NCBI RefSeq assembly: GCF_002075285.3
Contig: NZ_CP021983.2
Location: forward strand, 4,890,001-4,922,000
Length of the DNA: 32,000 nt
Direction of reading: 5' to 3'
Source of the DNA: Halomicronema hongdechloris C2206
GTDB lineage: Bacteria; Cyanobacteriota; Cyanobacteriia; Phormidesmidales; Phormidesmidaceae
Shown one piece after another: positions 2,442 to 27,474 of the stretch. The stretch's first letter is position 1; each line of letters starts with the position of its first letter. Under the pieces are notes generated by a model. That model was not told the DNA's origin and did no database searches. It was given only the letters and a program-made list of their open reading frames with translations. The translations under genes and the position numbers were made by a program.

Positions 2442-2804
2442 TCAGTCATCATCGTTGGGTTCATCCAAATGCTCTGAGGCTTCCCGATAAAGATTGAAAA
2501 TGTGCTTGTCTTTCAAGCAATAGTAAACATTGCGTCCTCGTTTGCGGTAGCTGACTAGCCGCATGGTGCGTAGCACTCGTAATTGATGGGAAACAGCGGA
2601 TTCAGTCATCTCAACCGCCTCAGCCAGTTCGCCTACCCGCAATTCCCGAGAGGCGAGTGCTGACAGAATACGCCAGCGATTCGGATCGCCCAGCACGCCA
2701 AAAAACTCGGCCATCCGCTGGGCCTTCTCAACACTCAGGATCCCACTGACGGGAGCATCGGCCCCGATCGCCTGCATCGCTTTTTCTTCAGAGTCCGACA
2801 TCAA
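2442..2804 (-). CDS. smtB: ArsR/SmtB-family zinc-sensing repressor
   Basis: Winged HTH ELAEAVEMTESAVSHQLRVLRTMRLVSYRKRGRNVYY. The C-terminal D-x-H...H-x-x-E pattern (LKDKH...EHLDE) matches the alpha5 metal site of SmtB. The gene is divergent from a metallothionein gene. Confidence 0.85.
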   Translation of the reverse strand: MMSDSEEKAMQAIGADAPVSGILSVEKAQRMAEFFGVLGDPNRWRILSALASRELRVGELAEAVEMTESAVSHQLRVLRTMRLVSYRKRGRNVYYCLKDKHIFNLYREASEHLDEPNDDD

Positions 2805-2972: not shown

Positions 2973-3140
2973 ATGACGACTGTTACTCAAATGAAATGTG
3001 CCTGTGACTCTTGCCTGTGCATTGTGGACACCAGCAAGGCGGTTGAAAAAGAGGGTCACTACTATTGCAGCGAGGCCTGTGCGAATGGCCATCCTGAAGG
3101 ATCGGGGTGTGGTCATACGGGCTGTACGTGTCACAGCTAA
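2973..3140 (+). CDS. smtA: Bacterial metallothionein (SmtA/BmtA family), 55 aa
   Basis: Absent from the supplied ORF track because it is under 60 aa. ATG at 2973, TAA at 3138-3140. The translation is MTTVTQMKCACDSCLCIVDTSKAVEKEGHYYCSEACANGHPEGSGCGHTGCTCHS. It shows the SmtA Cys/His pattern KCAC..CLC...YYCSEAC..GH...GCGHTGC.CH. Confidence 0.9.
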   Translation: MTTVTQMKCACDSCLCIVDTSKAVEKEGHYYCSEACANGHPEGSGCGHTGCTCHS

Positions 3141-3183: not shown

Positions 3184-3795
3184 TTACGCGATCGCACGCC
3201 AGGATTGCGACAGGACTGTTCCGGCAGAACGGGCAAAAACGACGGTGAGCAGCAGACCCACTAACAAATCCGGTATGGGAGACTGGGTGAGCAACACCAG
3301 TCCCGCAGCGACCAAAACGGATGTGTTGGCAATGATGTCATTGCGGGAGCAGAGCCAAACAGAAGACATGTTCAAGTTGTCCTGGCGATGGCGGGTGAGC
3401 AGCAACAGGCAGATCAGGTTAGCCACCAGCGCCAGCAAGCCCACGAAGCCCATGATTTCTGCTGTGGGTGCAGCCTCGGTCACAAACTGGTAAACGGCAC
3501 GGGCGAAGACCGCGATCGCAAATCCAAACATAATCACACCCTTCAGCAAAGCCGCCCCAGCCTGAGCCTTAACGCTGCGGTGAATCACATAGAGGCTGGT
3601 GCCATAGACCAAAGCGTCTCCCAACATATCCAGGGAATCCCCTGTGAGGGAAAGGGAATCGGCTCGCAGCCCCGCCCCAAACTCGACGACAAACATCGCG
3701 AGATTAATCCCCAACACCGCCCAAAGCACCCGAGCCTGACGCTTTTTGAGTTGAGTCAGGGCTTCGGCCTTGTGCTGACAACAGTGATCGGCCAT
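3184..3795 (-). CDS. Cation-diffusion-facilitator-like metal transporter, membrane domain only
   Basis: It has several hydrophobic helices, the motifs DSLDMLGD and NDIIAN, and a Cys/His-rich N-terminus MADHCCQH. I chose the start at Met8 (3795) because the longer ORF start lies inside the upstream palindrome. Confidence 0.6.
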   Translation of the reverse strand: MADHCCQHKAEALTQLKKRQARVLWAVLGINLAMFVVEFGAGLRADSLSLTGDSLDMLGDALVYGTSLYVIHRSVKAQAGAALLKGVIMFGFAIAVFARAVYQFVTEAAPTAEIMGFVGLLALVANLICLLLLTRHRQDNLNMSSVWLCSRNDIIANTSVLVAAGLVLLTQSPIPDLLVGLLLTVVFARSAGTVLSQSWRAIA

Positions 3796-3810
3796 TGCTT
3801 TCACCCAAAC

Positions 3811-3830
3811 ATTCAAATGAACGTTTGAAT
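3811..3830. promoter_or_regulatory. Candidate ArsR/SmtB-type operator upstream of the CDF gene
   Basis: Inverted repeat ATTCAAA-tgaacg-TTTGAAT sits directly 5' of the CDF start. A further half-site, CATTTGAATG, lies at 3854-3863. Confidence 0.5.
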
Positions 3831-4012
3831 AAAGGATAAAACATTATGACGTCCATTTGAATGTTTTCAGGAAATCCAGCGAGGTTCGGTTACAGTGATG
3901 GGAGATTGGCGCTTCAGGATTGATACTTGTCTTTAGGGAAGAGAGCAAGGGGGTTGCAGCGCGGCGTGAATTCTCAAGAGCACGAGGTTATGATCCGTAG
4001 GGGCGTCACATT

Positions 4013-4110
4013 CTGCCTAAGTGCCCAGCCTGAGAAGTCATCAAATCCCATTGAAGGCCTTATGATATGGGTGTTTTGATGGGTTTGAAAGCCTATCGCA
4101 TTAGGTAGAA
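4013..4110 (+). mobile_element. Possible degenerate attC site at the proximal edge of island 1
   Basis: GCCTAAG...ATTAGGT termini with partial arm complementarity (CCTAA/TGC/GC-CT). Both core sites deviate from RYYYAAC/GTTRRRY. Confidence 0.3.
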
Positions 4111-4327
4111 CGATTCTTTCTAATTAGTTGTTAGCAGTCTAGATGCGGTAACCTGCAACAAGCGTTAAGGCATTGTTACTTTTCTGAGAGTAATGTCTAC
4201 ATTCCAAGATATTGTGTCTTTAGTTTCTCAGTAGTTCCCTTTACTGCTGCATGAAAGATGTTGTTTCCAGCATGACTTCATTTATATCTCAAACAGTTTA
4301 TTGATTTACAAATTCAGTTAATCACCG

Positions 4328-5161
4328 ATGAATGATCCACAGAATCACTTTGACTGGGAAAGATTTATAGGATTACTTTTAGCTATTGGTGTCGTTATAG
4401 TCTTTGTATTTTTTTTATTTCTCCCCCCAGACATAAACCAGCTCACGTTACCTATCATTAGATTTTTAGCTGCTCTTGCAGCCGGGCTTTCAGCATACTT
4501 GTTTGCAGGCAGCTTAGATTTTGTGGGTTCACTTTCTAATCGAATACAAGTTAAGGCAGCGGGGGCATTTGCTGCATTTATAGCTGTTTTCTTCCTTTTC
4601 AGCCATGGTCTTCCCCAAAATCCAGTTGTCTCTGACCCTCAAGCTCCACCTACGTCTATCCCAGAGGATCAAACACTTTCTGATTTCTCTACTTTGGAAA
4701 GTCTTCTAAGTTCCGGTAATTGGAGAGAATCAGATCGAGAAACTGGTAAAGTAATGCTTGATATTATGGGAAGGGCTCAGCAAGGAACGATAGAACCTGG
4801 TAACATATCAAGCTTTCCCTGTGAGGAATTACGAGAAATTGACTCGCTTTGGGTCAAGTATAGCAACGGGAAATTTGGTTTCAGTGTTCAAGAGGAAATA
4901 TGGGCAGGCTTAGGAAGTCCAACGGTAGTAATTCCAGGTAAGATTTCAGAACTCAATACATTCATGACATTTGTTGGTTGGGGATTTGCTGATAGCATTT
5001 TCAGCTATGAGGATTTCGATTTTGATATTGAACAAGCTCCAAAAGGGCATCTTCCAGCGTGGCTTCACGATGTTTATTGTTTTGGTGAAAGTGAGAAGTG
5101 CTTCTGGGAAGTAATTGTAGCTCCTCTAGTTCGTACAGAAATTTGTATTTCTGGTACATAG
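4328..5161 (+). CDS. Membrane-anchored GUN4-domain protein
   Basis: An N-terminal hydrophobic region is followed by GNWRESDRETGKVML...FPCEELREIDSLWVKYSNGKFGFSVQ, the GUN4 signature. The gene lies in a visibly AT-richer segment. Confidence 0.7.
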   Translation: MNDPQNHFDWERFIGLLLAIGVVIVFVFFLFLPPDINQLTLPIIRFLAALAAGLSAYLFAGSLDFVGSLSNRIQVKAAGAFAAFIAVFFLFSHGLPQNPVVSDPQAPPTSIPEDQTLSDFSTLESLLSSGNWRESDRETGKVMLDIMGRAQQGTIEPGNISSFPCEELREIDSLWVKYSNGKFGFSVQEEIWAGLGSPTVVIPGKISELNTFMTFVGWGFADSIFSYEDFDFDIEQAPKGHLPAWLHDVYCFGESEKCFWEVIVAPLVRTEICISGT

Positions 5162-5344
5162 GTTTCTATAAGTTAAGTCAGTGTAATTAAGCTTGCTTTA
5201 GATTAGGCTGAAGTATAACACCTGGCATTGACAAGTCTTTGCAGGTCTCTCAAGTCGCTGATTGATTGGTCATTCTTCAAACCTCTTATGTTCTGGAGGT
5301 TGCAGCATACTTTCTGCCGAGATGTTTGCATGGCATGCGTGAGT

Positions 5345-5375
5345 GGCTAACAACTCAGTGCGATTGCCGATCTTG
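5345..5375 (+). mobile_element. attC remnant, 5' arm only
   Basis: GGCTAACAACTCAGTGCGATTGCCGATC aligns with the 5' arms of the attC sites at 5468 and 19313. Only a short complementary stretch (GCACTG) lies downstream, and there is no GTTRRRY. Confidence 0.35.
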
Positions 5376-5467
5376 TAGAATACGTTCCCTACTATAACTT
5401 ATACTACCCCACCGATAGATTTTGGGAAATGCACTGTGCTCATAAATTATTTAAAGCAAGCGGTCGC

Positions 5468-5555
5468 CGCTAACAACGCCCATGCACGCCGACCGTCGAA
5501 AAGCTATCTATTGGATTCAAAATTAATTTGCGGCGGGTGATGGGCACCGTTAGGC
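5468..5555 (+). mobile_element. Integron-type attC recombination site, 88 nt
   Basis: 5' CGCTAACAACGCCCATGCACGCCGACCG ... GCGGCGGGTGATGGGCACCGTTAGGC 3'. The arms pair imperfectly (CTAAC/GTTAG, GCCCAT/ATGGGC, CAC, CCG, CCG) with unpaired bases. The 3' core GTTAGGC fits GTTRRRY. Confidence 0.75.
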
Positions 5556-5684
5556 CGCAAGGTTATCTTTGGAGGCGTTCATCAATCTCATCTGTTGGAA
5601 TTCAGCTGAAAACTAACTATAGAGCACTAATTTCCAGATGTCGTTGCAAGTTAAACTAGAGGTAGATAAGCAGCGTTCTCACTA

Positions 5685-5921
5685 ATGCCTACAGTTCTTC
5701 AGGTTGGTCCCTACAGTTTCATCTTTTTCAGCTCTGATAGAGGCGAACCTGCTCACATCCACGTGAAGCGTGATCGGCAGCTAGCTAAATTTTGGCTTGA
5801 TTCTGTTTCTTTAGGAAAGAATCGAGGGTTTAAGGACCACGAATTGAACGATATTTCTCGGCTGGTGGAGGAACACGAACAAATACTGTTGGAGGCTTGG
5901 CATGACTACTTTGACGCTTGA
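5685..5921 (+). CDS. DUF4160-family protein
   Basis: FFSSDRGEPAHIHVKRD...AKFWL is typical of DUF4160. It overlaps the next ORF by 20 nt. Confidence 0.65.
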   Translation: MPTVLQVGPYSFIFFSSDRGEPAHIHVKRDRQLAKFWLDSVSLGKNRGFKDHELNDISRLVEEHEQILLEAWHDYFDA

Positions 5922-6243
5922 AACAGAACCCCTTGCATTACAAGTCAGCGTGACCGATAAAAATTTAATAGTGGACTTGGTCGATGGACGCAGTTTAATA
6001 GTTCCCTTATCTTGGTATCCTCGCTTATTGCAAGCATCTCAAAAGGAACGGCAAAACTGGCAACTCTTAGGAGACGGTTATGCAATTGAGTGGGTTGATT
6101 TAGACGAACATATTGGTATTGAAGGTTTGCTAGCTGGTAGAAAAAGTGGTGAAAGCAATAATTCTTTTGAACGTTGGCTGGCGACACGAGGCACTTCTTC
6201 ACAGAATGAGCAGGCTAAAAATTCAAATGTAGCGGACAGTTAA
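5902..6243 (+). CDS. DUF2442-family protein, the usual partner of DUF4160
   Basis: LIVDLVDGRSLIVPLSWYPRLL...GYAIEWVDLDEHIGIEGLLAG matches the DUF2442 pattern. Confidence 0.65.
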   Translation: MTTLTLETEPLALQVSVTDKNLIVDLVDGRSLIVPLSWYPRLLQASQKERQNWQLLGDGYAIEWVDLDEHIGIEGLLAGRKSGESNNSFERWLATRGTSSQNEQAKNSNVADS

Positions 6244-6321
6244 GAGCCTTTGGCGTTGAGTTTAAGGTGATCTGCCGCCGCTAATTTGAGCCGTTACAGA
6301 CCTTCCCAATCCCTAAAATCC

Positions 6322-6687
6322 CTAATCCACCAACTGCTTCAGCGAATAACTGAGAATTTCGGATACCCGCCGATCGCGCAGTGAATAGTAGGCCAGCTTG
6401 CCATCATTGCGATATTTGAGAATCTTCAAGTCCCGCAGTTTGCGTAGGTGATGGGAGGCGGTCGCGACTTTAACGTCTAGCAGGGTGGCGATATCGCAGA
6501 CGCAGAGTTCCTGGTCATGGCTCAGGGCATAGAGAATTTTCAGTCGAGAGCGGTCAGCTAAGGCTCCAAAGATGATTTGGGCTATTTCCAGGGTGTCATC
6601 ACTGGGCAGCGTGTTTTGGACATGGTGAACTAACTCGGTGTTGAAGCACCGAATCTGGCAAATGTCCTTGGGCTTGGAGTTGCTCAC
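6322..6687 (-). CDS. ArsR-family metal sensor with alpha3N-type cysteines
   Basis: It has the HTH ...ATASHHLRKLRDLKILKYRNDGKLAYY and an ELCVCD motif in alpha3. N-terminal Cys10 and Cys14 (CQIRC) are present. It lacks a C-terminal His/Asp alpha5 site. Confidence 0.75.
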   Translation of the reverse strand: MSNSKPKDICQIRCFNTELVHHVQNTLPSDDTLEIAQIIFGALADRSRLKILYALSHDQELCVCDIATLLDVKVATASHHLRKLRDLKILKYRNDGKLAYYSLRDRRVSEILSYSLKQLVD

Positions 6688-6798
6688 GAGTGGATCAGGG
6701 ATTGTATGGGCTCATTATGGCCTATGGGCTGTGGTTCAGGGTGGGTGGATGGTTAGGCGAACGATAGGGTGGCTTTGGTCAGGGCAGGTACGATGCGA

Positions 6799-6824
6799 TG
6801 GCCGAAGGCCGGTCCTTTGGACCA
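6799..6824 (+). repeat. HIP1-splitting mini-hairpin element, 26 nt
   Basis: GCGA | T GGCC GAA GGCC GGTCC TTT GGACC A | TCGC. Removing it recreates GCGATCGC and extends the oxidoreductase frame to ...LACDRIVPALTKATLSFA*. Confidence 0.8.
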
Positions 6825-7821
6825 TCGCAGGCTAGTTTCCCTCCAAACAAGTTTCGGGCTACCGGGCCGATGTGCAACGCCGCCCACGGTCCCATCAAAA
6901 ACAGTTCGCAGCCCGGCCAGCGCAGGTGTTCATCCAAAACGGGCAAGCCGTTGATAGTTGCGATGGGATATTGCGCTAACACGTCCGTCAATAAGGGATG
7001 AGATCGGATATCCAGGGTCGTTCCCGTGGCGAGCCAGATGCGGTGAATCGGTTGATGGGTGATGCAATCATGCACCGAGTGGTGTCGCAGCACACCTTCC
7101 AGGCGTCCCCTTGCCACTGGGCATCCGCGACCTGACAGTGCTCGTAAAAGGTGATGTGCCCTTGCCGCTGGAGTTGCCGCAGGCGCGTCATCATCGCGGG
7201 CGTGAGCGAGCCGCCATTGCGGGCTTGCTGTACCATCTGCCAGCGGGCCTGCATATCCGCTTCCTCGTGGAAACCTTTCAGATACTTCGGCCCCAGCCAC
7301 CCCGGTTCGGCATCGAACAGCTTTTCCTGAAACGTGCGTCGCGCCATCATCACCACTTTCGCGCCGCGCTTCACAGCCCCGACCGCCAGGTGCCCGCTGG
7401 TCAAGCCACTGCCCACAATGAGCACCGTTTCACCTTTGAGTGAATTCAAGGCAGGCAGCCGGATTTGGTTGGCATGGCACAACCTTTCCGGCGGATAGGT
7501 GGCACTGATTTGCTTGCCCCAATCGGGTAGGTAGGGCTGCCCACCTCCCATGGCTAGCACGACCCGCCGCGCCAGCACCGTATTCCCTGTCGATAAAGTC
7601 AACCGAAATCGGAAAGGTCTTTTCTGCAAGGTCTCCAATCGTGTAACTGCTGCGGTCACCACATGATTTTGCAACTGCCAACGCTGCACCACCGTGTCGC
7701 AGAACTCTTGAAACAGGCGCGTGCCGGGACGGTCGTAGGGCGGGTGCAGTTTGTCATAGCGCCCTTCGGCAAAGGTGCGCAGAGCGTGGGCATTGGGGTC
7801 CGGATGATGGACGGCGGGCGA

Positions 7822-7847
7822 TGGTCGAAGACCGGTCCTTTGGACCA
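7822..7847 (+). repeat. HIP1-splitting mini-hairpin element, 26 nt
   Basis: GCGA | T GGTC GAA GACC GGTCC TTT GGACC A | TCGC. Removing it joins ...QQQFAAQEIAELR to SPAVHHPDPNAHAL... in one frame. Confidence 0.85.
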
Positions 7848-8069
7848 TCGCAGTTCGGCAATTTCTTGTGCCGCAAACTGTTGCTGCCACTGGGTCATCC
7901 AGGCACCACTGGGGTCAAATACCTGGATGCGATCGCACAGTTTCGCCTTCTTTTGCAACACATGGGTGACCAGGGTGAGGGCCTGCGGTCCGGCCCAATG
8001 ACGGCAATATCGGTCTGCGACTGAGCCATAACGGTTGACTGAGGTTGCTCAAATAGGATGCAAGCAATA

Positions 8070-12448: not shown

Positions 12449-12497
12449 GGGAATTGGGGAATGGGGAATGGGGAATGGGGAATGGGGAATGGGGTTA
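12448..12497. repeat. Tandem heptamer array (GGGGAAT), six full units plus one partial unit; STRR-like
   Basis: Read directly in the znuC-znuB spacer: GGGGAAT t GGGGAAT x5 GGGGTTA. Confidence 0.9.
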
Positions 12498-16730: not shown

Positions 16731-18200
16731 ATGTTCCTCACTTTCTACAACAGCCTCACCAAACGCAAACAACCCTTTACCCCCAGCCATCCAGGACGGG
16801 TAACTCTGTATTGCTGTGGGGTGACGGTTTATGACGATTGCCACCTGGGCCATGCCCGGTCATACCTGGGGTGGGATGTGCTGCGGCGATACCTGCGCTG
16901 GCGGGGGTACGTGGTTCATTACGTGCAAAACTTCACCGATATTGACGACAAAATCCTCAACCGGGCCAGAGCCGAGGGCACAACCATGGCGGCTATCTCA
17001 GAGCGCTACATCCAGCGCTACTTTGAAGACATGCACCGCCTGAATGTGATGGATGCCGATGAGTATCCCAGGGTGACGGAACATATTGAGGCGATTCATG
17101 AGTTGATTGGTCAGTTAGAGGCTAAGGGCTATGCCTACGCTGCCGGGGGCGATGTGTATTATCGGGTAGAGCAGTTTGCCGACTATGGCCAGCTTTCGGG
17201 GCGATCGCTGGCAACCCTGCAGGCGGGAGCGAGTGGTCGCGATCTGGCGGCTACCGCCAAGGCCAACCCAGCGGACTTTGCCCTCTGGAAGGGAGCCAAA
17301 CCCGACGAACCGGCGTGGGACTCTCCCTGGGGACCGGGCCGACCGGGCTGGCATATCGAATGTTCCGCGATGATTCGAGCCCGACTGGGGGCCACCATCG
17401 ATATCCACGGTGGTGGCGGCGACCTCGTGTTTCCCCACCACGAGAATGAAATCGCCCAATCCCAGGCCGCCAACGGCAAACCCCTGGCCAACTACTGGCT
17501 ACACAACGGCATGGTGACGGTGAAGGGCGAAAAGATGTCGAAATCCCTGGGCAACTTCACTACGATTCGCGATTTGCTAGAGGGTCGTTGGCCGGAGTAT
17601 CCGCAGCCGGTAGACCCGATGGTAGTGCGGCTGTTCGTGCTGCAGGGGCATTATCGGAAGCCACTGGATTTTACGAAAGATGCCATCGCAGCCGCGATCA
17701 ACAGTTGGCAAACCCTGAAAGCCGGACTCCTCTTTGGCGACCACCACGGAGCCGCGCTGGGATGGTCAGTCGCCCCCCTTCAATCTTCTCTTCAGGAACT
17801 CAGCCTAGACAACCCGTGGGTCGAAAGGTTCCAAACCGCCATGGATGATGACCTGAACACGCCGGGGGCTCTGGCAGTGCTGTTTGAGCTGGCCAAAGGG
17901 TTGCAGCGGGAGGGAAACCGTCTGGTTCACGAAGGGAAGCCCCAATCCAGACCTGATGTGCTCTTGCAGCAGTGGCAAACCCTGTTGCATCTATCCCAGG
18001 TTTTAGGATTTGAGGCTAAAGCAAACGGTACGGCGGGTGACTTGGATGAGGCTGCGATCGCTGATCTGATCCAGCAGCGTCAGGCGGCCCGGCAACAGCG
18101 CGACTTTGCTATGGCAGATGATATTCGCGATCGGCTTGCGGCGGGGGGGATTACGGTGGTTGACCAACCGGATGGCGAAGTCCGCTGGCATTGGCAGTGA
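16731..18200 (+). CDS. cysS: Cysteinyl-tRNA synthetase
   Basis: Class I signatures HLGH and KMSKS. The zinc-site residues are retained (YCCGVT, HIECSAM, HGGGGDLVFPHHENE). Confidence 0.9.
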   Translation: MFLTFYNSLTKRKQPFTPSHPGRVTLYCCGVTVYDDCHLGHARSYLGWDVLRRYLRWRGYVVHYVQNFTDIDDKILNRARAEGTTMAAISERYIQRYFEDMHRLNVMDADEYPRVTEHIEAIHELIGQLEAKGYAYAAGGDVYYRVEQFADYGQLSGRSLATLQAGASGRDLAATAKANPADFALWKGAKPDEPAWDSPWGPGRPGWHIECSAMIRARLGATIDIHGGGGDLVFPHHENEIAQSQAANGKPLANYWLHNGMVTVKGEKMSKSLGNFTTIRDLLEGRWPEYPQPVDPMVVRLFVLQGHYRKPLDFTKDAIAAAINSWQTLKAGLLFGDHHGAALGWSVAPLQSSLQELSLDNPWVERFQTAMDDDLNTPGALAVLFELAKGLQREGNRLVHEGKPQSRPDVLLQQWQTLLHLSQVLGFEAKANGTAGDLDEAAIADLIQQRQAARQQRDFAMADDIRDRLAAGGITVVDQPDGEVRWHWQ

Positions 18201-18417
18201 ATCAGCGCGGTCGGAGCAATGCTTTAAGCGAATCTAGTCTCTGACGTGGTCTGGTAGCTTTCGTGGTTGAATCCCTATAGGTGGTAGGCGCAGAATAAAT
18301 GTGTTTATCTTGACCTGCAACCAGAAAAACTTACTGAGAAAACTCGGCAGCTATACTGAAATTTTCAATATATTCATCCGATATGAGCGGACTATATGGA
18401 TAAATTGCAGCCTATCC

Positions 18418-18509
18418 ACCCAACTTGGTGAGATATACTGCGAATAATCAACATATCCACCCTGTTTCGGGCAGATAGACTGAAACTGTCGATCTAATAA
18501 GAGTTAGGC
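18418..18509 (+). mobile_element. Candidate attC site or array-proximal recombination site
   Basis: ACCCAAC (fits RYYYAAC) ... GTTAGGC (fits GTTRRRY, 18503-18509), 92 nt apart. It lies 37 nt upstream of the SDR start. Arm pairing is only moderate (AACT..T.AGAT). Confidence 0.4.
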
Positions 18510-18545
18510 AGAATTAAACTCAAGGAAAATGAGAAGTGTCAGACT

Positions 18546-19298
18546 GTGACTGAGAAGGGAAGCGAAAAGAGAGTTGCACTGGTGACGGGTTCGACATCAG
18601 GAATTGGGATGGCGATCGCAAAGCGGCTTGCTGAAGATGGGTTTACTGTTGTTTTTCATTCCAGGTCATCGGTGTCAGTTGGGCAGTCACTAGCGACAGC
18701 GTATCCTGGTGCATCTTATTTCCAAGCTGATTTGTCCGATCAAGGTCAGGCTCGTGATTTGATTGCTAGAGTCTTATCGCATCACAGGCGGATAGATGTG
18801 TTGGTCAATAATGCAGGGGTTAGTGCCACAATTCCACATACATCCCTTAAGGAAGCGACACCAGAGGTCTGGCGAGATCTGTATGAAGTCAACGTCATTG
18901 CACCTTGGACACTCATTGCAGAGGCTGAAAATGCGCTACGTCAGTCATCCAGCCCTGACTGTCCTAGTTGCATTCTCAATATTAGTTCTCATGCTGGGAT
19001 TCGCCCAAAAGGAGCCTCAATCCCATATTCTGCAAGTAAAGCTGCTCTAAACCACATGACGAAGCTGCTTGCATTGAGTCTTGCACCACAAATTCGTGTG
19101 AATGCGATCGCACCGGGTTTAGTTGAAACTCCAATGAGCAAAGATTGGACAGCAGCCCGAAAGTTGTGGGAAGAGCGATCGCCAATGGAGCGAGGAGCGC
19201 AGCCAGAAGAGATTGCACAGGTGGCTTCGATGCTGGTTACAAGCCATTATCTTACGGGTGAGATTATAATTTCAGACGGAGGATTGAACCTTACGTAG
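18546..19298 (+). CDS. Short-chain dehydrogenase/reductase (SDR) family oxidoreductase
   Basis: Motifs TGSTSGIG, NNAG and YSASKAA. It has a GTG start and lies in AT-richer sequence. Confidence 0.85.
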   Translation: MTEKGSEKRVALVTGSTSGIGMAIAKRLAEDGFTVVFHSRSSVSVGQSLATAYPGASYFQADLSDQGQARDLIARVLSHHRRIDVLVNNAGVSATIPHTSLKEATPEVWRDLYEVNVIAPWTLIAEAENALRQSSSPDCPSCILNISSHAGIRPKGASIPYSASKAALNHMTKLLALSLAPQIRVNAIAPGLVETPMSKDWTAARKLWEERSPMERGAQPEEIAQVASMLVTSHYLTGEIIISDGGLNLT

Positions 19299-19312
19299 TC
19301 TGTGAAAATCAT

Positions 19313-19401
19313 GCCTAACAATCCCGTTGCACACCGACCGAATCAAGTTGGTTGGTGAGTTCCGAGAGATGACTAGCGGCGGGTGAACGGGGTCGTTAGG
19401 C
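19313..19401 (+). mobile_element. Integron-type attC recombination site, 89 nt
   Basis: GCCTAACAATCCCGTTGCACACCGACCG ... GCGGCGGGTGAACGGGGTCGTTAGGC. The cores are exact RYYYAAC and GTTRRRY. The arms are imperfectly complementary, and the 5' arm closely resembles classical cassette attC sites (GCCTAACAAT.C.GTT.CA..CCGAC). Confidence 0.8.
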
Positions 19402-19599
19402 AGACTTCACCCTGGGCTGTACACTCTTTTTGACATAGCAATGGCGAGAAAAGTCTTGCAGCTAACGTGAATATGATTATCTGGAATTTTTATTGAAGCA
19501 CTTAATTTTGATTTTGCTGACTACTTCAGTGGGATAATCCCAAGCCTCCAAAATGAAGCAAAACTGGAGACTGTTTTTAAGTGTTTTATGATTTAAGGA

Positions 19600-22368
19600 A
19601 TGTACAGGCCAATTTTAACCAGCAAACTGTATATCCCTCCACCACGACCCAACGCTGTGGTGCGTCCACGCCTTATTGAACGACTGAATGCGGGGCTACA
19701 CTACAAGCTAACCCTCATTTCTGCTGCTGCTGGTTTTGGCAAAACAACTTTACTCAGCGAATGGATTGCCGTCTGTGAACAGCCGGTGGCATGGCTGTCA
19801 CTAGATGAGGAGCATAATGATCCAACTCGCTTTCTGATTTACGTTGTGTCTGCCTTGCAAACGCTCACCTTAAGCAAGGTTAAGGGGGAAACTCAACTCG
19901 GTGAGGGGGTTTTAAGAGCATTAAAATCACCCCAACCGCCCCCACTCAATTCGCTTCTAACGACGTTGATCAATGAAATTACGGCCGTTTCCGAAAACGT
20001 CATCCTCGTCCTTGATGACTACCACCGCATTGAATCCGAACCAGTGGATCAGGCAATGGAGTTTTGGGTCCAGCACCTGCCGCCATCTTGTATGCACCTT
20101 GTTATTGCCACCCGCGAAGACCCACCGCTGCCCCTAGCACGGCTGCGCGCGGGGGGTCAGTTGACCGAACTGCGTGCCCCCGATTTGCGCTTTACCCAAG
20201 TCGAAACGGCTGAATTTCTGAACCAGGTGATGGATCTCAATCTCTCGATAGAAGAGATTACCGCACTTGAAAATCGCACTGAAGGTTGGATTACCGGCCT
20301 GCAATTGGCAGCGATATCCTTACAAGGACGCCAAGACACAACCACCTTTATCAAATCTTTCTCCGGTAGTCATTATTTTGTGCTGGATTATCTAATTGAA
20401 GAAATTCTAGAACAACAGCCCGAAAGTATCCAGAACTTCCTATTATCCACATCTATTCTTGATCGCCTATGTGGCTCTCTTTGTGATGCTGTTCTGTCCC
20501 AAGCTTCTACCCCAGGCCAAGAAATCTTAGAGTATCTAGAACGCACAAATTTGCTGCTGGTTCCGCTAGATGACAAACGCGAGTGGTATCGCTACCATCA
20601 TCTTTTTACAGATGCTCTGCAAGTACGCTTAACTCAGGGGCACCCCGACCATGTAGCTGAGCTACATCTAAGAGCATGTGCATGGTACGAGCAGAATAAT
20701 TTGCGGCCTAATGCGATCCACCACGCCCTCGCTGCCCGACATTTCGAGCGCGCGGCGGATCTAATCGAACTGGAATGGTCAGCTAATAGTGGATCCTATT
20801 ATCAGAATGCAACCTGGACAGAATGGGTAAAGACACTGCCAAACGAGTTAGTCCGAACCCGGACTACGCTCAGTATTGGCCTTGCCTGGGAGTTGCTTTT
20901 CTCAGGTCAGTTGCAGGCTGCAGAGAACCGACTGAAGGACGCAGATCGTTTATTGGAACTGACAGTAAACACCCGTGATTCTCTGGAGACTTCGCCAAGC
21001 AGTCAGGATGAGAAAACATTCCGTTCGCAGCAAGGGTTATTAGGCGTTGCTTGGGCTTTTCATGCTCAGGCACTCAGCGATAATGCTGGCACTATCAAAC
21101 ATGCCCGGCAAACACTCAACCTCCTATCTGAGACGAACCATTATATCGCTGGCCTCGCAAGCTCTCTGCTAGGTCTGGCTTATTGGAGGGATGGGGATTT
21201 GGAGATGGCCGTTCAGTATATGTCCGATGCGATCGCACGCTTGCGGACGACAGGACATCTCCTTTTTGCAATCAGTGGAATCTATACATTGGCTGGTATT
21301 AAGATTGCCCAGGGGCGTCTTTTTGACGCAGTTAATCTCTATAAAGAGGCCTTACTCTTTGCAACAGCACAAGGCGAGCCAGTATTGCCGGGCACAACTG
21401 ACTTACATCTCGGGTTGAGCCAGCTTTATCATGAACAGGGCAACGAGGAAGCTGCTAAACAGCACCTGCAGAAATGCGAGACACTCGACAAACGAGCAGC
21501 ATTACCGGAATGGCCCTATGGCTTATATCTTTTTCAGGCTCAATTAAAGGTCGAGCAGGGAGAACTGGATGATGCCCTCAAGTTACTCGAAGAAGCGGGA
21601 CAACTCTACCGTAGAAGTCCTGTTCCCAATCTTTGCCCTGTAGCCGCCTTGAAAACGCGGGTATGGCTCCGACAAGGCAGGCTGGCAGAAGCTCTTAGTT
21701 GGGTGCGTGAGCAAGACCTGTCTATTGATGATAAGCTCAACTATTTGCAAGAATTCGAGTACATCACATTCGCTAGGGTACTCATTGTTCAGTATAGACG
21801 TGACCAAACAGACGAGACCTTTCAAAAAGCAATGAAACTTCTGACGCAACTATACTCAGCAGCAGAAGCAGGTGGCAGGTCAGGCAGCATGATTGAGATC
21901 CTCATCTTGCAAGCAATCATCAATGAAGCACAAGGCCATATCTCTTCCGCCCTCCAGTTTTTGGAACGCGCCCTCACACTAGCAGAAACTGAGGGTTACC
22001 TCCGTATCTTTGTAAATGAAGGCCAGCCCATGGCGCGTTTACTCTATGAGGCCCTTGCTCGCAAAATAACACCTAATTATGTACAGCGCGTGTTAACTGC
22101 GTTTCCTCTTAACGAGTTAGAACCCAAAAAATCGTTAAAAACGCAACCTCAAGCAGCCAGGTTGCTCGAACCATTGAGCAAGCGAGAAATCGAGGTGCTT
22201 CACCTGATAGCAGAGGGTCGAACCAATCAGGAAATTGCGACGATACTCTTTCTTTCGGTGAATACAGTGAAAGTGCATACTCGAAATATTTACGGCAAAC
22301 TCGATGCCCATCACCGGGCAGGCGCCGTTGCGAAGGCCCGTGCTTTGGGTGTTTTGTCCTCAACGTAG
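19600..22368 (+). CDS. MalT-like LuxR-family regulator (STAND ATPase, TPR-like repeats, C-terminal LuxR HTH)
   Basis: It has an N-terminal P-loop (AAAGFGKTT) and Walker B (VLDDYH), followed by a long helical repeat region. The C-terminal HTH is LSKREIEVLHLIAEGRTNQEIATILFLSVNTVKVHTRNIYGKL. Confidence 0.85.
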   Translation: MYRPILTSKLYIPPPRPNAVVRPRLIERLNAGLHYKLTLISAAAGFGKTTLLSEWIAVCEQPVAWLSLDEEHNDPTRFLIYVVSALQTLTLSKVKGETQLGEGVLRALKSPQPPPLNSLLTTLINEITAVSENVILVLDDYHRIESEPVDQAMEFWVQHLPPSCMHLVIATREDPPLPLARLRAGGQLTELRAPDLRFTQVETAEFLNQVMDLNLSIEEITALENRTEGWITGLQLAAISLQGRQDTTTFIKSFSGSHYFVLDYLIEEILEQQPESIQNFLLSTSILDRLCGSLCDAVLSQASTPGQEILEYLERTNLLLVPLDDKREWYRYHHLFTDALQVRLTQGHPDHVAELHLRACAWYEQNNLRPNAIHHALAARHFERAADLIELEWSANSGSYYQNATWTEWVKTLPNELVRTRTTLSIGLAWELLFSGQLQAAENRLKDADRLLELTVNTRDSLETSPSSQDEKTFRSQQGLLGVAWAFHAQALSDNAGTIKHARQTLNLLSETNHYIAGLASSLLGLAYWRDGDLEMAVQYMSDAIARLRTTGHLLFAISGIYTLAGIKIAQGRLFDAVNLYKEALLFATAQGEPVLPGTTDLHLGLSQLYHEQGNEEAAKQHLQKCETLDKRAALPEWPYGLYLFQAQLKVEQGELDDALKLLEEAGQLYRRSPVPNLCPVAALKTRVWLRQGRLAEALSWVREQDLSIDDKLNYLQEFEYITFARVLIVQYRRDQTDETFQKAMKLLTQLYSAAEAGGRSGSMIEILILQAIINEAQGHISSALQFLERALTLAETEGYLRIFVNEGQPMARLLYEALARKITPNYVQRVLTAFPLNELEPKKSLKTQPQAARLLEPLSKREIEVLHLIAEGRTNQEIATILFLSVNTVKVHTRNIYGKLDAHHRAGAVAKARALGVLSST

Positions 22369-22473
22369 TCATCAGGCTCCCCATCACCCAACTTCCCTTT
22401 ATTGATGGGTAATTACTCCTTGAATAATACTCCAGTGGTATGACCCTCATATCGTCTTGCCCATAAGCTTCTT

Positions 22474-23211
22474 GTGTCGGTGATAAATACTCACAACAGG
22501 AATGGAGTAATGAAAGAAATGATTGCAGAAGCTTCGTTGCCATTCAAAGCGAGAATGGGTGGCGTTTTATACTTAATCATTATCATTGGAGGACTCTTCG
22601 GTGCGGGCTATGTTCCTTCCACGATCGTCGTACATGGTGATGCAGCAGCTACGGTAAATAACATCCTGGCAAACGAATCGCTCTATAGATTCGGACTTAG
22701 CATTCACATCATCGTAGTTCTTTGTAATATCCCTCTAGCAGTCATCTTTTACGACCTATTCGAGCTTGCAAACAAAAGTCTCTCTCGACTAGTGATGCTT
22801 TTTATATTGGTAGCAGCGACTATTGAGGGTGTCAGCTTACTCAATCAATTTGTCCCTCTAATCCTTTTACAGAGTGCTGCCACAATAACCGCAGAACAGC
22901 TTCAGGCTACGACTTATATGCACTTCCTGCTACAAGTTATAGGGTTTAATCTCAGTCTTGCATTTTTTGGCTGCTTCTGTCTTCTGGCTGGTTATTTAAT
23001 TTTCAGATTAGGTGTCCTTCCTCGAATAATAGGTTTGCTTTTGGCGATAGGGGGAGCGTGTTACCTGATTAATAGTTTCGCCAACTTTCTAGTCCCTGAA
23101 TTCGCTGTTAGTTTGTCCCCTTATATCTTTATCCCATGTTTTTTGGGGGAGGCAACACTCTGTTTGTCGTTGTTGATTAAGGGTGTAAGTCTTGAACAGA
23201 AGGTCATCTAA
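22474..23211 (+). CDS. DUF4386-family membrane protein
   Basis: A polytopic protein whose sequence, YLIIIIGGLFGAGYVP...GDAAATVNNILANESLYRFG, is typical of DUF4386. The true start may be the ATG at 22510. Confidence 0.5.
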   Translation: MSVINTHNRNGVMKEMIAEASLPFKARMGGVLYLIIIIGGLFGAGYVPSTIVVHGDAAATVNNILANESLYRFGLSIHIIVVLCNIPLAVIFYDLFELANKSLSRLVMLFILVAATIEGVSLLNQFVPLILLQSAATITAEQLQATTYMHFLLQVIGFNLSLAFFGCFCLLAGYLIFRLGVLPRIIGLLLAIGGACYLINSFANFLVPEFAVSLSPYIFIPCFLGEATLCLSLLIKGVSLEQKVI

Positions 23212-24192
23212 ATGAAAAAGGTTGTATACACAAAGTATGGTTCCCCAGATGTCATTGAACTCATAGAGACCGAGAAACCGTTACCTAAGGATAATCAAGT
23301 TTTGCTAAAGGTTCATGCGGCATCTGTCAACATGTTGGATTGGTATCATCTAACAGGTCCTCCGGTGATCCGTTTAACAAACGGTACACTTTCCAAACCC
23401 AAAGAGACTTCACTTGGACTAGACGTGGCTGGTCAGGTTGAAGCTGTAGGCGATCGCGTAACCCAGTTGCAGCCAGGGGATGAAGTCTTTGGAATAGCCA
23501 AAGGTTCATTTGCAGACTATGCGTGCGCTGATGAACATGAGTTGGTACAGAAACCGGCCAACGTATCGTTTGAGGCTGCGGCTGCTACCCCTGTAGCAGC
23601 CTTGACAGCGCTACAAGGACTTCACAATAAAGGCCGAATCCAGCCAGGTCAAAAGGTTCTCATCAATGGAGCTTCTGGTGGCGTAGGGACGTTCGCTGTG
23701 CAGATAGCCAAATCCTTCGAGACCATCGTAACGGCTGTCTGTAGCACCCAAAACCTGGATATCGCTCGCTCAATGGGGGCAAACTACGCTATTGATTATA
23801 CGCGAGAAGATTTTACGACGAATGGACGGCAATTTGACTTGATCTTTGCTGTCAACGGCTACCACTCGATTTTTGATTATCGCAGGGCATTGAGTCCTAC
23901 GGGCATCTATGTCTCAGCTGGAGGGAAGCTGGCTCAAATTATTCAGGCAGCGCTTGTGGGACCCATACTATCGAAAGTTGGACGTCAGCAACTCTCATTT
24001 ATGGGGATAGCGCAAGTGAAGCAAAAGGACCTGTCTATTATTGGAGAGCTGCTTGAATCTGGCAAAATCATACCCGTAATTGATAGATGTTATCCGTTAA
24101 GAGCAACATCACATGCCCTTCAATATCTTGGGGCGGGGCATGCCAAAGGAAAAGTCATCATCACTATGAGACCTGATGATAACAGCTCGTAA
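23212..24192 (+). CDS. MDR-superfamily NAD(P)H quinone oxidoreductase / alcohol dehydrogenase-like protein
   Basis: It has a GroES-like N-domain and the Rossmann motif INGASGGVGTFAVQIAK. The C-terminus is GHAKGKVII. Confidence 0.8.
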   Translation: MKKVVYTKYGSPDVIELIETEKPLPKDNQVLLKVHAASVNMLDWYHLTGPPVIRLTNGTLSKPKETSLGLDVAGQVEAVGDRVTQLQPGDEVFGIAKGSFADYACADEHELVQKPANVSFEAAAATPVAALTALQGLHNKGRIQPGQKVLINGASGGVGTFAVQIAKSFETIVTAVCSTQNLDIARSMGANYAIDYTREDFTTNGRQFDLIFAVNGYHSIFDYRRALSPTGIYVSAGGKLAQIIQAALVGPILSKVGRQQLSFMGIAQVKQKDLSIIGELLESGKIIPVIDRCYPLRATSHALQYLGAGHAKGKVIITMRPDDNSS

Positions 24193-24212
24193 GGCGCGAA
24201 TTCTCTCTAGCT

Positions 24213-24298
24213 GCCTAACACTACGCCGGAGCGGACGGATGACAAAATCTGAGTATTGACACGAAAACATTGACCGCCGTTCAGCTTCACCGTTAGGC
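24213..24298 (+). mobile_element. Integron-type attC recombination site, 86 nt
   Basis: GCCTAACACTACGCCGGAGCGGACGG ... GACCGCCGTTCAGCTTCACCGTTAGGC. The core sites are exact, and the arms pair imperfectly with bulges. Confidence 0.7.
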
Positions 24299-24532
24299 GA
24301 TTCTATTCTGGAGATGAATGAAGCTATTTTTTGCCAAGTCCTTGACAAGTTTCTCTATTTAGGCTATCAAGCTTATTTCCTAAGCATCCAAAAGCCTTAG
24401 AGCACTTACATAATTGCTCTATCAATGACCCTGACGACCATTTGCGAGAATGGGCAAGAAGACAACTTTTATAATGAGAACAGGTGAATTGAGCTTCAGC
24501 TTACATCGGTAGATAAAGTAAGAAGAGGTTTT

Positions 24533-24991: not shown

Positions 24992-25950
24992 TCACTCTGG
25001 CTTCTGAATCAGACTCTCCCATTGCCGCTGTTTCACTTTGGGGTCAATGCCCAGCAAACGCACATAGTCGCCGGGATGATCTGCCAAGAACTGCTCCACC
25101 TGGGTCAGCACCTGGGCCTCGTGGTTACTCGCAATGGTCGGGCCATTCTGCCAGGAACCTGCCTTAAATCGCCGGATATCGGCGAATTCCAGGCCAATGT
25201 GGTGCCCCTGACGGAGTTTTTGCCGGATTCGTCCACAATTTCTGCCCGCAAAGGGTGAGCTACCTGACCATTGTGATGCATAGACTGGAAGCCATTACTG
25301 GAGATAGGATTCTGCAAAGACCTGAGGCAGGCGATATCGTCAGCACAGCGATATCCGGCTCGCAGGGCCTGGTTGATTTCGACCACGTGATGAGAGAAGG
25401 TGCGATGGTCAAAGACCGGCCTCCGGCCATCGCTATCGTTAGCATCCGGTAACCGATCGGCAGCTTGCTGGGTCGTAATCACTGCTCCTGAGGGCACATA
25501 CTTACCGGGGGGAATCTCCACATCTTGAATCAGGGCATGCATCATCACAATGCACCCGTGACCCACCTGGGCATTAAACACCGTCGAGCGAAAGCCAATA
25601 AAACACTCATTCCCAACGTAAGCGGGGCCATGAATCAACGCCATGTGGGTAATGCAGGTGTCGTGGCCAATCCACACAGAGTAGGCTTGCTGATCATCCC
25701 CTAAGACTCGTCCCTGCTCTAACCCATGAATGACCACCCCATCCTGAATGTTGGTATTCACCCCGATATAAAAGGGAGTCCCTTCATCCGCTCGAATGGA
25801 GGTATTGGGGGCGATAATCACATTTTCGCCCAGCTGCACATCACCAATCAGACTGCACTGGGGATGAACATAGGCAGAAGCTGCAATTGTAGGCTGATCT
25901 AGGTCATGGTCCCAGGGAGTGGGTGGGGCGGGTTGACGACGGAGCGGCAT
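24992..25950 (-). pseudogene. Gamma-carbonic-anhydrase / CcmM-like protein with one RbcS-like (SSLD) module; 1-nt frameshift near 25227-25230
   Basis: ORF 25105-25950 holds a left-handed beta-helix gamma-CA domain with the His ligands retained ([13 protein letters not shown]). A second minus frame from about 25228 to 24992 gives [78 protein letters not shown]. That is a typical CcmM small-subunit-like domain. Confidence 0.75.
25406..25429 (+). repeat. HIP1-splitting mini-hairpin element, 24 nt, in frame
   Basis: GCGA | T GGTC AAA GACC GGCC TCC GGCC A | TCGC. It adds GRRPVFDH within ...LPDANDSD[..][18 protein letters not shown]. Confidence 0.8.
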
Positions 25951-26673: not shown

Positions 26674-27474
26674 ATGCTCAGTTTTGGCAAGTCAATCATT
26701 GCGATCGCCCACAAAAAGGGGGGCGCGATGGTCCTCCGGACCGGCTCCGCCATCGCAGCCGGCACAACCCTGAGTCTACTTACCATTAATCCTGCCCAAG
26801 CAGCTACCTTTGAGATTTCATGGACGGGACAAATTCTGGGCTACAGTGCCGAGGGTCGTTTCAGCTACGACGACACCCAAACCTTTGAAGATGGAATTGT
26901 GCGAGGTGACGATTTAGACGCGTTTGACATTGCCTTCTTCGACCCGCAGGGCAATCTGATCCAAGAATTTGAGGATAACCACCTTACCTATCCAGAGTTC
27001 AACTTTAATTTCGACACCCAAACGGGTGAAATTCTGCAAGATGGCTTTTTCGATGAGCCGAATGGCATTAACGTTGGAGAATTTACGGTTCTGTTCGATG
27101 ACGCGGGGGACACTATTGGGGCAACGGGACTGAACTTCTGGTCGGCGGCTCCCGTTGAAGATGGAGAACCTGTCCCCCATGTTCACCTAACCGATTTTGG
27201 CAATAACTTTCCTGACCTGCCGATAGGCTTCGTCCCCCCCGAGTTTGTCGAGGAGTCCCCCAATTTGTCGGTACGCGTTCGTCCCCATCTCGATGTCGCT
27301 TTCTTTACCCGCACACAGGCACAGCTTTTGGATGATCCAGATGCAGGTGATCAGCTCGGCCAGAGGATGGTTGCAACCCCGGTACCTGAACCGGGTGCTT
27401 TAGTCGGACTGGGTGCGATCGCATTGCTAGCCGCTCGTTTGCGGAGAAAATCTGGTGCGATTGACTCGATATGA
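26674..27474 (+). CDS. PEP-CTERM-anchored secreted protein
   Basis: It has an N-terminal signal peptide. The C-terminus is VPEPGALVGLGAIALLAARLRRK, that is, a PEP motif, a TM helix and a basic tail. Confidence 0.8.
   Translation: MLSFGKSIIAIAHKKGGAMVLRTGSAIAAGTTLSLLTINPAQAATFEISWTGQILGYSAEGRFSYDDTQTFEDGIVRGDDLDAFDIAFFDPQGNLIQEFEDNHLTYPEFNFNFDTQTGEILQDGFFDEPNGINVGEFTVLFDDAGDTIGATGLNFWSAAPVEDGEPVPHVHLTDFGNNFPDLPIGFVPPEFVEESPNLSVRVRPHLDVAFFTRTQAQLLDDPDAGDQLGQRMVATPVPEPGALVGLGAIALLAARLRRKSGAIDSI
26729..26752 (-). repeat. HIP1-splitting mini-hairpin element, 24 nt, inverted orientation, in frame
   Basis: GCGA | T GGTCC TCC GGACC GGC TCC GCC A | TCGC. It adds MVLRTGSA inside the signal peptide (..HKKGGA[..]IAAGTTLSLL). 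Confidence 0.75.

Follow-up and report, generated by a model that had tools for sequence, protein, structure and literature searches.

The segment at positions 3883-6299 of the window analysed here, a stretch of 32,000 nucleotides from Halomicronema hongdechloris C2206 (NZ_CP021983.2, positions 4,890,001 to 4,922,000), is very probably the remnant of a sedentary chromosomal integron without an integrase gene, i.e., an attC cluster that has no integron integrase (CALIN) in the terms of IntegronFinder (Cury et al., 2016; PMC4889954). It stands between arsR, encoding a predicted CadC-like repressor, and the gene of a short cation diffusion facilitator (CDF). Judged from comparisons of sequence, the array would start with an attI-like site at 4101-4136, followed by two cassettes on the + strand that are each closed by the R' box of an attC site (Table 1). 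For a CALIN, two or more attC sites are required on the same strand within 4 kb, with no intI close by; here, the sites attC A and attC D lie 650 bp apart on the + strand, and the intI gene of a complete integron is not found in the window. An earlier reading of the DNA, made from the sequence alone (the sequence-only reading), had described an AT-rich, attC-bearing island between the two metal-homeostasis genes. The G+C content of 3883-6299 is indeed 0.424 vs 0.536 in the left and 0.561 in the right flank, and the central proposal is supported, but the island is more than a set of loose cassettes, with an attI-like platform in the window and integrase relics at the same locus in relatives.

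The attC sites were identified with two covariance models built here, R1 from four sites and R2 from twelve, and the whole window was searched with R2 on both strands with filters off. R2 has four matches, which are confined to the + strand and each stand directly behind + strand open reading frames (ORFs): attC A behind the GUN4 ORF, attC D overlapping the DUF2442 stop codon, attC B 13 nt past an SDR ORF in a second AT-rich island, and attC C in that second island as well. Site C is outside the training set, and site D was detected by R1 before it entered any training set. Scores on the minus strand range from 9 to 24 bits (9 vs 77 for attC A, 24 vs 84), in agreement with the R''-L'' arm having bulged bases, two to three in attC A. 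The core sites of an attC are expected as R'' RYYYAAC and R' GTTRRRY at opposite ends of about 57-141 nt; the sites of this family measure 89-93 nt. attC A has a perfect R' box GTTAGGC (5549-5555) and an imperfect R'' box GCCGCTAAC (5466-5474), of which CTAAC is paired, attC D has a degenerate R'' box GGCTAAA (6213-6219) and an R' box GTTACAG (6293-6299), and the sister sites at 19313 and 24213 show perfect GCCTAAC/GTTAGGC boxes. A scan for core boxes and folds had returned mostly chance matches and missed attC A and D owing to their imperfect R'' boxes, and it was replaced by the covariance models.

Folding of single candidates gave unimpressive z-scores of -1.4, and the support for the structure comes from covariation instead. 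Over the twelve sequences 85.8% of the cells are paired, compared to 24-42% if the partners are slid, compensatory changes occur in 10 of the 15 inner-helix pairs, and the observed covariation score was reached by none of 500 shuffles. On the coding strand, the 5' arm has an unpaired G and A in all members of the family, with an optional third base. The arms of attC A and attC B are nearly identical and differ by compensatory changes (GCCCAT/ATGGGC vs CCCGTT/AACGGG). This bears out the earlier observation that a good attC at 5468-5555, which R2 accepts with bounds of 5466-5557, resembles the site at 19313, and the likeness seen between the two islands turns out to reflect one structurally covarying family. 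Two further features had been proposed in the same island, and these did not hold up. The weak attC candidate at 4013-4110 gives no R2 match at E<=10 with filters off and was reassigned to a hairpin of the attI-like platform. The supposed remnant of an attC 5' arm at 5345-5375 was not confirmed; it may plausibly be a 5' half-site, and the 9-mer GSCTAACAA that it carries occurs twice in the window vs 0.56 times expected, a number equalled in 10 of 100 shuffles. The second full site, attC D at 6211-6299, had been missed.

For an independent view on the family, contigs with integrase genes are informative. With a fragment of a cyanobacterial integron integrase as query, 80 integrase loci were obtained from metagenomes, and these were searched together with locus L081, i.e., 81 loci in total. 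R2 has 26 matches in these loci, 24 of them upstream of intI on the opposite strand, which is the canonical geometry of an integron. As an example, L084 shows three attC sites of 46-80 bits beside an IntI scoring 322 bits against TIGR02249 (cutoff 265), and the IntI of L082 scores 417 bits against the same model. P0001 adjoins a transposase in an unrelated context, and R2 finds no attC in about 300 kb of proteobacterial loci. Because R2 sites lie upstream of, and divergent from, intI in independent contigs, the sites in the window can be assigned, by sequence and predicted structure, to a bona fide attC family.

This geometry also bears on the possibility that the hairpins are cyanobacterial repeats, resembling repetitive extragenic palindromic sequences or miniature inverted-repeat transposable elements (REP/MITE-like), or terminators, in a generic island gained by horizontal transfer and without relation to integrons. 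The absence of an integrase from the window, the partial conservation of the loop region (TTCAAGGTGATCTG), an unusual trait among the attC sites of mobile integrons, and a scan of the window against Rfam that returned no matches, Rfam being without an attC family, can be counted for such repeats. They would not explain that the same model picks arrays divergent from bona fide IntI genes, nor the canonical core boxes, the bulges on one arm, the strict orientation behind ORFs and the strand asymmetry; moreover, the island has neither a transposase nor terminal inverted repeats, and homogeneous attC sites are typical of sedentary integrons (PMC8618304). We regard repeats unrelated to integrons as having almost no likelihood.

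The integron reading is further supported by the sequence to the left of the first cassette. About 250 bp at this position are common to the window and five relatives, and the six sequences diverge right after the GTTAG core (4130-4134). Within this putative platform remnant lie an imperfect hairpin (4013-4110, about 110 nt), which is conserved and corresponds to one short inverted-repeat unit that is repeated three times in L011, L038 and L084, and a GTTACAG heptamer at 3889-3895. Its last 35 nt (TTAGGTAGAACGATTCTTTCTAATTAGTTGTTAG) fit a motif that is located directly upstream of intI in L082, L083 and L084 and also at relic platforms. The motif occurs 11 times in 1.64 Mb vs 0 times in shuffles; three occurrences precede bona fide intI genes and the rest are at relic platforms. 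We infer that 4101-4136 is an attI site with crossover at G4130|TT, and cassette 1 would then be delimited by the attI core on one side and by attC A's R' box on the other.

Moreover, the integrase itself has left traces at this locus in relatives. In a tblastn search with IntI1, used only as a probe, L009, L038 and L024 show integrase fragments next to the CDF promoter, on the same strand as CDF. The best NCBIfam match of these relics is the integron integrase TIGR02249 (E about 1e-11), and Xer models are at least four orders of magnitude worse. In the L024 relic, an N-terminus is fused to the characteristic C-terminus THVLNRGGQGVRSPLD. Different genomes have different deletions, which shows that the integrase decayed independently. 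A more sensitive tblastn search (E<=10) gave no IntI relic in the arsR-CDF gap of the window. A tyrosine recombinase upstream of arsR in L005 was considered and set aside as Xer-like and not IntI. A homologue search with the chimeric relic returned only proteins of at most 213 aa and permits no inference on intact cyanobacterial IntI.

Several side observations concern these integrases. The integrase relics at L024 9340-9791 on the one hand and at L009 3675-4087 and L038 9556-9917 on the other represent two integrase lineages with two variants of the attI platform in the arsR-CDF spacer, which could be due to repeated acquisition, replacement by recombination or a hotspot. L082 (307-1194) and L083 (513-1316) carry closely related integrase genes that are 83-86% identical to a truncated protein of Halomicronema hongdechloris and have different premature in-frame stops in the same WIW(Q) motif. 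Every integrase copy complete enough to judge is broken, and the intI of L084 is uninterrupted over 245 sequenced codons and then cut by the contig end. Integrase decay thus seems to be pervasive in this cyanobacterial lineage.

Platform and relics have to be weighed against a different origin, in which the cassettes were inserted singly, by an integrase encoded at another place, at a GTTACAG secondary site and the locus never held a platform of its own. Integron integrases were described to insert cassettes at secondary sites, and this is listed among the origins of CALINs (PMC4889954; bioRxiv 10.1101/2022.09.11.507474). The array also ends in the non-consensus R' box GTTACAG, a heptamer present again in the platform remnant and in the apparently empty site of L015. 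However, the attI-like motif of the window is homologous to sequence adjacent to intI, three relatives have integrase relics at the same end of the arsR-CDF locus, and the 250 bp conserved in six genomes end precisely at the attI core. This makes single insertions at a locus without a platform very improbable.

The comparison of the spacer in relatives shows where the integron entered and how its array changed. The survey covered 47 cyanobacterial loci in which arsR precedes a co-directional CDF gene. Between the two genes lie about 80-350 bp in 34 of the 47 loci, with 85-90 bp in Acaryochloris and Calothrix, and more than 800 bp (0.9-4.8 kb) in 12 loci, all except one of which (11/12) belong to the clade of the closest relatives. 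In L004, whose CDF is 94% identical, the spacer has 146 bp and its ends match the window at 3796-3914 and 6303-6321. The view that the island splits a sensor/transporter pair is borne out by these short spacers, and the uninterrupted arrangement expected in related genomes was found. Close relatives carry other genes of cassette type at the same place: TIR in L001, DUF433/DUF5615 in L016 and L002, GNAT in L006, PIN in L009 and L038, OsmC and a nucleotidyltransferase in L003, GFA in L007, and Uma2 in L007, L013 and L024. These enlarged spacers hold R2 attC sites, all in the + orientation of the window, so that relatives do not show the same intervening genes with native G+C content and without attC, a pattern that would have spoken against an integron.

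The junction beside arsR, G|TTACAG-AyCTkCCCAATCC, is common to the window, L016, L002, L006 and L058, and the attC ahead of the G differs between them. In L016, an attC 79% identical to attC A is joined directly to TTACAG. Excision of cassette 2 (5550-6293) from the window is predicted to give the junction ...GGGCACCG|TTACAGACC. The L016 junction is the product expected from excision of cassette 2 at G|TT and therefore provides comparative evidence for recombination of the integrase type. As a separate observation, a partial duplicate of the arsR 3' end was found inside the spacer of L006 (8345-8593), L007 (8574-8754), L013 (8128-8349) and L024 (8418-8583). It carries the GTTACAG junction in L006 and L013, and past it stand a Uma2-family gene and then the full arsR in L007, L013 and L024 and a reversed DUF433/DUF5615 pair in L006.

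Some points weigh against an integron remnant. No integrase or relic was found in the 32-kb window by tblastn with IntI1 (E<=1). The R'' boxes of attC A and attC D are imperfect, and the R' box GTTACAG of attC D departs from GTTRRRY. The attC models were trained on sequences of these same loci, with validation on independent integrase-linked contigs, and the attI assignment rests on homology and on a motif defined after the fact. Finally, there is no + strand sigma-70-like promoter site in 3700-6900 and hence no cassette promoter Pc, and the TATACT element of the L038 and L082 platforms is missing from the arsR-CDF island.

The history of the locus might be as follows. The element would have entered the short spacer between the CadC-like arsR and CDF in an ancestor of the Nodosilinea/Halomicronema-like clade, with the integrase gene pointing toward CDF and divergent from the cassettes. 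The integrase would later have been destroyed by different deletions in each lineage, completely so in this genome, and cassettes were probably swapped through site-specific recombination, with the G|TT of the attC sites as the point of exchange. Cassettes of the present array would be mobile only if an integron integrase were supplied from elsewhere. Their expression may be poor, given that the search for + strand promoter-like sites gave none.

Table 1. Features of the arsR-CDF locus and related attC sites in the window (cassette, attI and platform assignments are predictions)
Feature	Position	Strand	Details
SmtB gene	2442-2804	-	alpha5 motif DxHx10HxxE
Metallothionein SmtA gene	2973-3140	+	
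Short CDF gene, 203 aa	3184-3795	-	Pfam Cation_efflux, E 1e-15
CDF promoter/operator	3811-3870	-	palindrome, second half-site and -35/-10-like pair (3870..3843)
Integron platform remnant, former intI position	3883-4129	+	77-80% identity to the same position in L001, L002, L006, L013, L058
attI-like site	4101-4136	+	TTAGGTAGAACGATTCTTTCTAATTAGTTGTTAGCA; ends GTTAGCA (4130-4136); probable crossover G4130|T4131
Cassette 1	4131-5549	+	GUN4 ORF, non-coding tail (candidate half-site 5345-5375) and attC A; G+C 0.41
GUN4-domain membrane protein ORF	4328-5161	+	Pfam GUN4, E 1e-34; hydrophobic N-terminal segments
attC A	5466-5557	+	R2 77 bits, E 5e-19; R1 94.8 bits
Cassette 2	5550-6293	+	DUF4160, DUF2442 and attC D
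DUF4160 ORF	5685-5921	+	Pfam, E 1e-16
DUF2442 ORF	5902-6243	+	Pfam, E 1e-18; 20-nt overlap with DUF4160
attC D	6211-6299	+	R2 73.7 bits, E 4e-18; R1 41.8 bits
CadC-like (alpha3N) ArsR/SmtB-family repressor gene	6322-6687	-	Pfam HTH_5
attC B	19311-19403	+	R2 84.3 bits; second island
attC C	24211-24300	+	R2 39.2 bits; outside training set

The sequence-only reading had also held that the transporter gene keeps a palindromic operator and that its separation from the sensor gene may have rewired their regulation. The first part is correct: upstream of CDF, 3811-3830 forms a perfect 7-6-7 palindrome (ATTCAAATGAACGTTTGAAT), and a second operator half-site (CATTTGAATG) follows at 3855-3864. No palindrome of this kind is located ahead of arsR. 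Ahead of CDF, the motif TTCwAA-N6-TTwGAA recurs across genera in nearly every cyanobacterial locus, whether or not the spacer is interrupted, and it was not found in the proteobacterial loci. This conservation across genera shows CDF to have a regulated promoter of its own. Both promoter and operator are situated between the insertion and CDF, and their sequence is almost the same in relatives with an interruption and in those without (e.g., L004). The ArsR protein would be expected to bind the CDF operator. Repressors of the ArsR family such as CadC and SmtB act in trans, so that unchanged control of CDF is the simplest expectation and ArsR most likely still controls CDF; only a possible read-through from arsR would be lost by the insertion.

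A rewiring, in which CDF became uncoupled from co-transcription with arsR or came under integron-derived transcription, is distinctly unlikely. Some read-through is conceivable in the ancestral arrangement with both genes co-directional and 85-350 bp apart, and convergent cassettes would abolish it; in L016 (9120-10010) an array even takes the place of the CDF operator and of the first 28 codons, the exporter gene being damaged there by the integron region. In the window, however, the CDF operator and promoter are intact and nearly identical to those of the uninterrupted L004, the motif is that of an independently regulated promoter and the repressor works in trans, which leaves the supposed regulatory change unsupported. 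The separation of arsR and CDF should thus not be read as a change in regulation. Regulation of CDF by the neighbouring SmtB was considered as well. The divergent smtB/smtA spacer (2885-2945) holds two tandem SmtB-type operator repeats (ACCTGAACAAGyrTTCAAGTGTT), and this candidate was rejected as the sequence of the smtA/smtB operator (2890-2945) differs from that of CDF.

With regard to the cassette genes, the membrane-anchored GUN4-domain ORF and the DUF4160/DUF2442 pair reported earlier on the + strand are confirmed by their Pfam matches. Toxin-antitoxin cassettes are typical of sedentary integrons, and such pairs typically stabilise cassette arrays. The DUF4160/DUF2442 pair is predicted to be a type II toxin-antitoxin system of the DhiTA type, which was validated in Dickeya with the same domain pair and gene order (PMC8198452). 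Among the other 161 loci the DUF4160/DUF2442 genes of the window were not found and the GUN4 gene had one weak match (L056), i.e., neither cassette is common to the window and the relatives sampled.

The second AT-rich island of the window (18200-24300) is an intI-less integron remnant, too, by its predicted sites. An attI-like site (GATAGACTGAAACTGTCGATCTAATAAGAGTTAG) is placed at 18474-18507, just past cysS, an SDR cassette ends in attC B, and an unusually long segment of 4.9 kb, encoding a MalT/LuxR-type regulator, a DUF4386 protein and a zinc-dependent alcohol dehydrogenase (Zn-ADH), ends in attC C. The island starts with a platform like that of the first island, the window sequence 18335-18510 having its homologue in the intI-attI spacer of L082, L083 and L024.

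A C-terminal fragment of CysRS, 72-77% identical to residues 440-489 of the CysRS of the window, was observed in L009 (4041-4190) and L010 (2473-2577), in both cases with the CDF promoter on one side and the intI relic on the other. Its presence there suggests that the arsR-CDF integron was copied from the cysS-linked one, and it raises the question whether whole platforms are copied between loci. It was considered whether the arsR-CDF integron is a secondary copy of the cysS-linked integron, the whole platform and its array having moved as a unit into a GTTACAG secondary site. Further hints are that the island has GTTAYGG as its left boundary (in relatives) and GTTACAG as its right one, that two platform/IntI lineages are present in the arsR-CDF spacer (L024 vs L009/L038), and that the cassette content differs among genomes that are all without a working intI at this locus. 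We consider such a move unlikely overall, and if it is true, the integron platform and not the cassettes alone would be relocatable within a genome. In the window GTTACAG is seen at both edges of the island (3889-3895 and 6293-6299), and it occurs once in the short, apparently empty spacer of L015; these edges could be the footprint of a site-specific integration of the whole element or a coincidence.

Compared with known systems, the element is ordinary in kind. Integrons and CALINs were recorded in Cyanobacteria, where CALINs and decayed sedentary integrons have already been surveyed, and a recognisable intI pseudogene was present near only 15 of 279 CALINs (PMC4889954). Like other CALINs, the island shows two attC sites on one strand behind ORFs and no intI, and like sedentary integrons it has homogeneous attC sites and cassettes of unknown-function and toxin-antitoxin type. 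Unlike a usual CALIN, an attI-like site survives here, intI pseudogene fragments are present at the orthologous locus in relatives, and the host is a filamentous cyanobacterium, from a phylum in which integrons were recorded but are little described. The superintegron of Vibrio cholerae with its VCR sites likewise has a homogeneous clade-specific attC family and toxin-antitoxin cassettes, and the DUF4160/DUF2442 pair is listed for V. cholerae (PMC12654330). That system differs by an active IntIA and more than 100 cassettes, compared to two cassettes and no integrase here.

The ilvD integrons of Xanthomonas reportedly occupy a fixed position, with an integrase that is often inactivated and cassettes that differ between lineages (work of Gillings and colleagues from 2005). 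They would thus be alike in their fixed position across a clade, broken integrase and lineage-specific arrays. The system described here belongs to another phylum, is anchored at arsR/CDF and cysS and not at ilvD, uses another attC/attI family and has very short arrays of one to four cassettes. It offers a natural system, comparable to that of Xanthomonas, to follow array turnover past the loss of the integrase. As a junction-level record of a chromosomal integron lineage in filamentous cyanobacteria, where such lineages are barely characterised, it contributes an attC family that is specific to the clade, a candidate architecture of attI and a fixed insertion point in a zinc/cadmium homeostasis cluster, and it adds repeated independent integrase decay while the cassette content of relatives keeps differing. 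For annotation, both AT-rich islands of the window may be explained as cassette arrays. The junction comparison and the possible duplication of the platform are the parts most worth pursuing.

The surroundings of the island belong to a metal-homeostasis cluster that takes up the first 18 kb of the window and comprises, next to the genes in Table 1, an oxidoreductase, several CobW/COG0523 paralogues and a CysRS paralogue. The nearest public relative of CDF is that of Nodosilinea sp. LEGE 07088 (96% amino-acid identity), metagenome-assembled genomes labelled Halomicronema and Leptolyngbya have about 92-93% identity, and orthologues with 70-96% identity were found in about 60 cyanobacterial loci. 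The N-terminus of CDF is rich in cysteines (MADHCCQH).

The earlier assignment of the 6322-6687 product to the alpha3N type agrees with its best solved relative, CadC (1U2W, E 1.5e-26). In the alignment, Cys10 stands opposite Cys7 of CadC, Cys14 falls on the site of CadC Cys11, which is Gly in the 1U2W chain, the ELCVCD segment with the CVC motif is conserved, and the alpha5 His is absent, the DxH motif reading DRR. With an N-terminal Cys pair, a CXC in alpha3 and a winged helix-turn-helix, the predicted protein has the features of a CadC-like alpha3N sensor. The pair resembles CadC-CadA, AztR-AztA and ZiaR-ZiaA in that a CadC-like alpha3N repressor is encoded beside an exporter gene with an inverted-repeat operator. 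It differs in that the exporter is a short CDF consisting of the membrane domain only and not a P-type ATPase, and in that sensor and exporter are separated by an integron remnant of 2.5 kb.

Two repeats were observed elsewhere in the window. A tandem heptamer GGGGAAT with about 7 copies is intergenic in the CobW/zinc gene cluster (12449-12497). Palindromic repeats of one family, about 36 nt long (GCGATGGCCGAAGGCCGGTCCTTTGGACCATCGCAG), are present in four copies (6795-6830, 7818-7853, 25411-25433 and 26725-26745), two of which flank the oxidoreductase gene region, one just downstream and one inside the 5' end.

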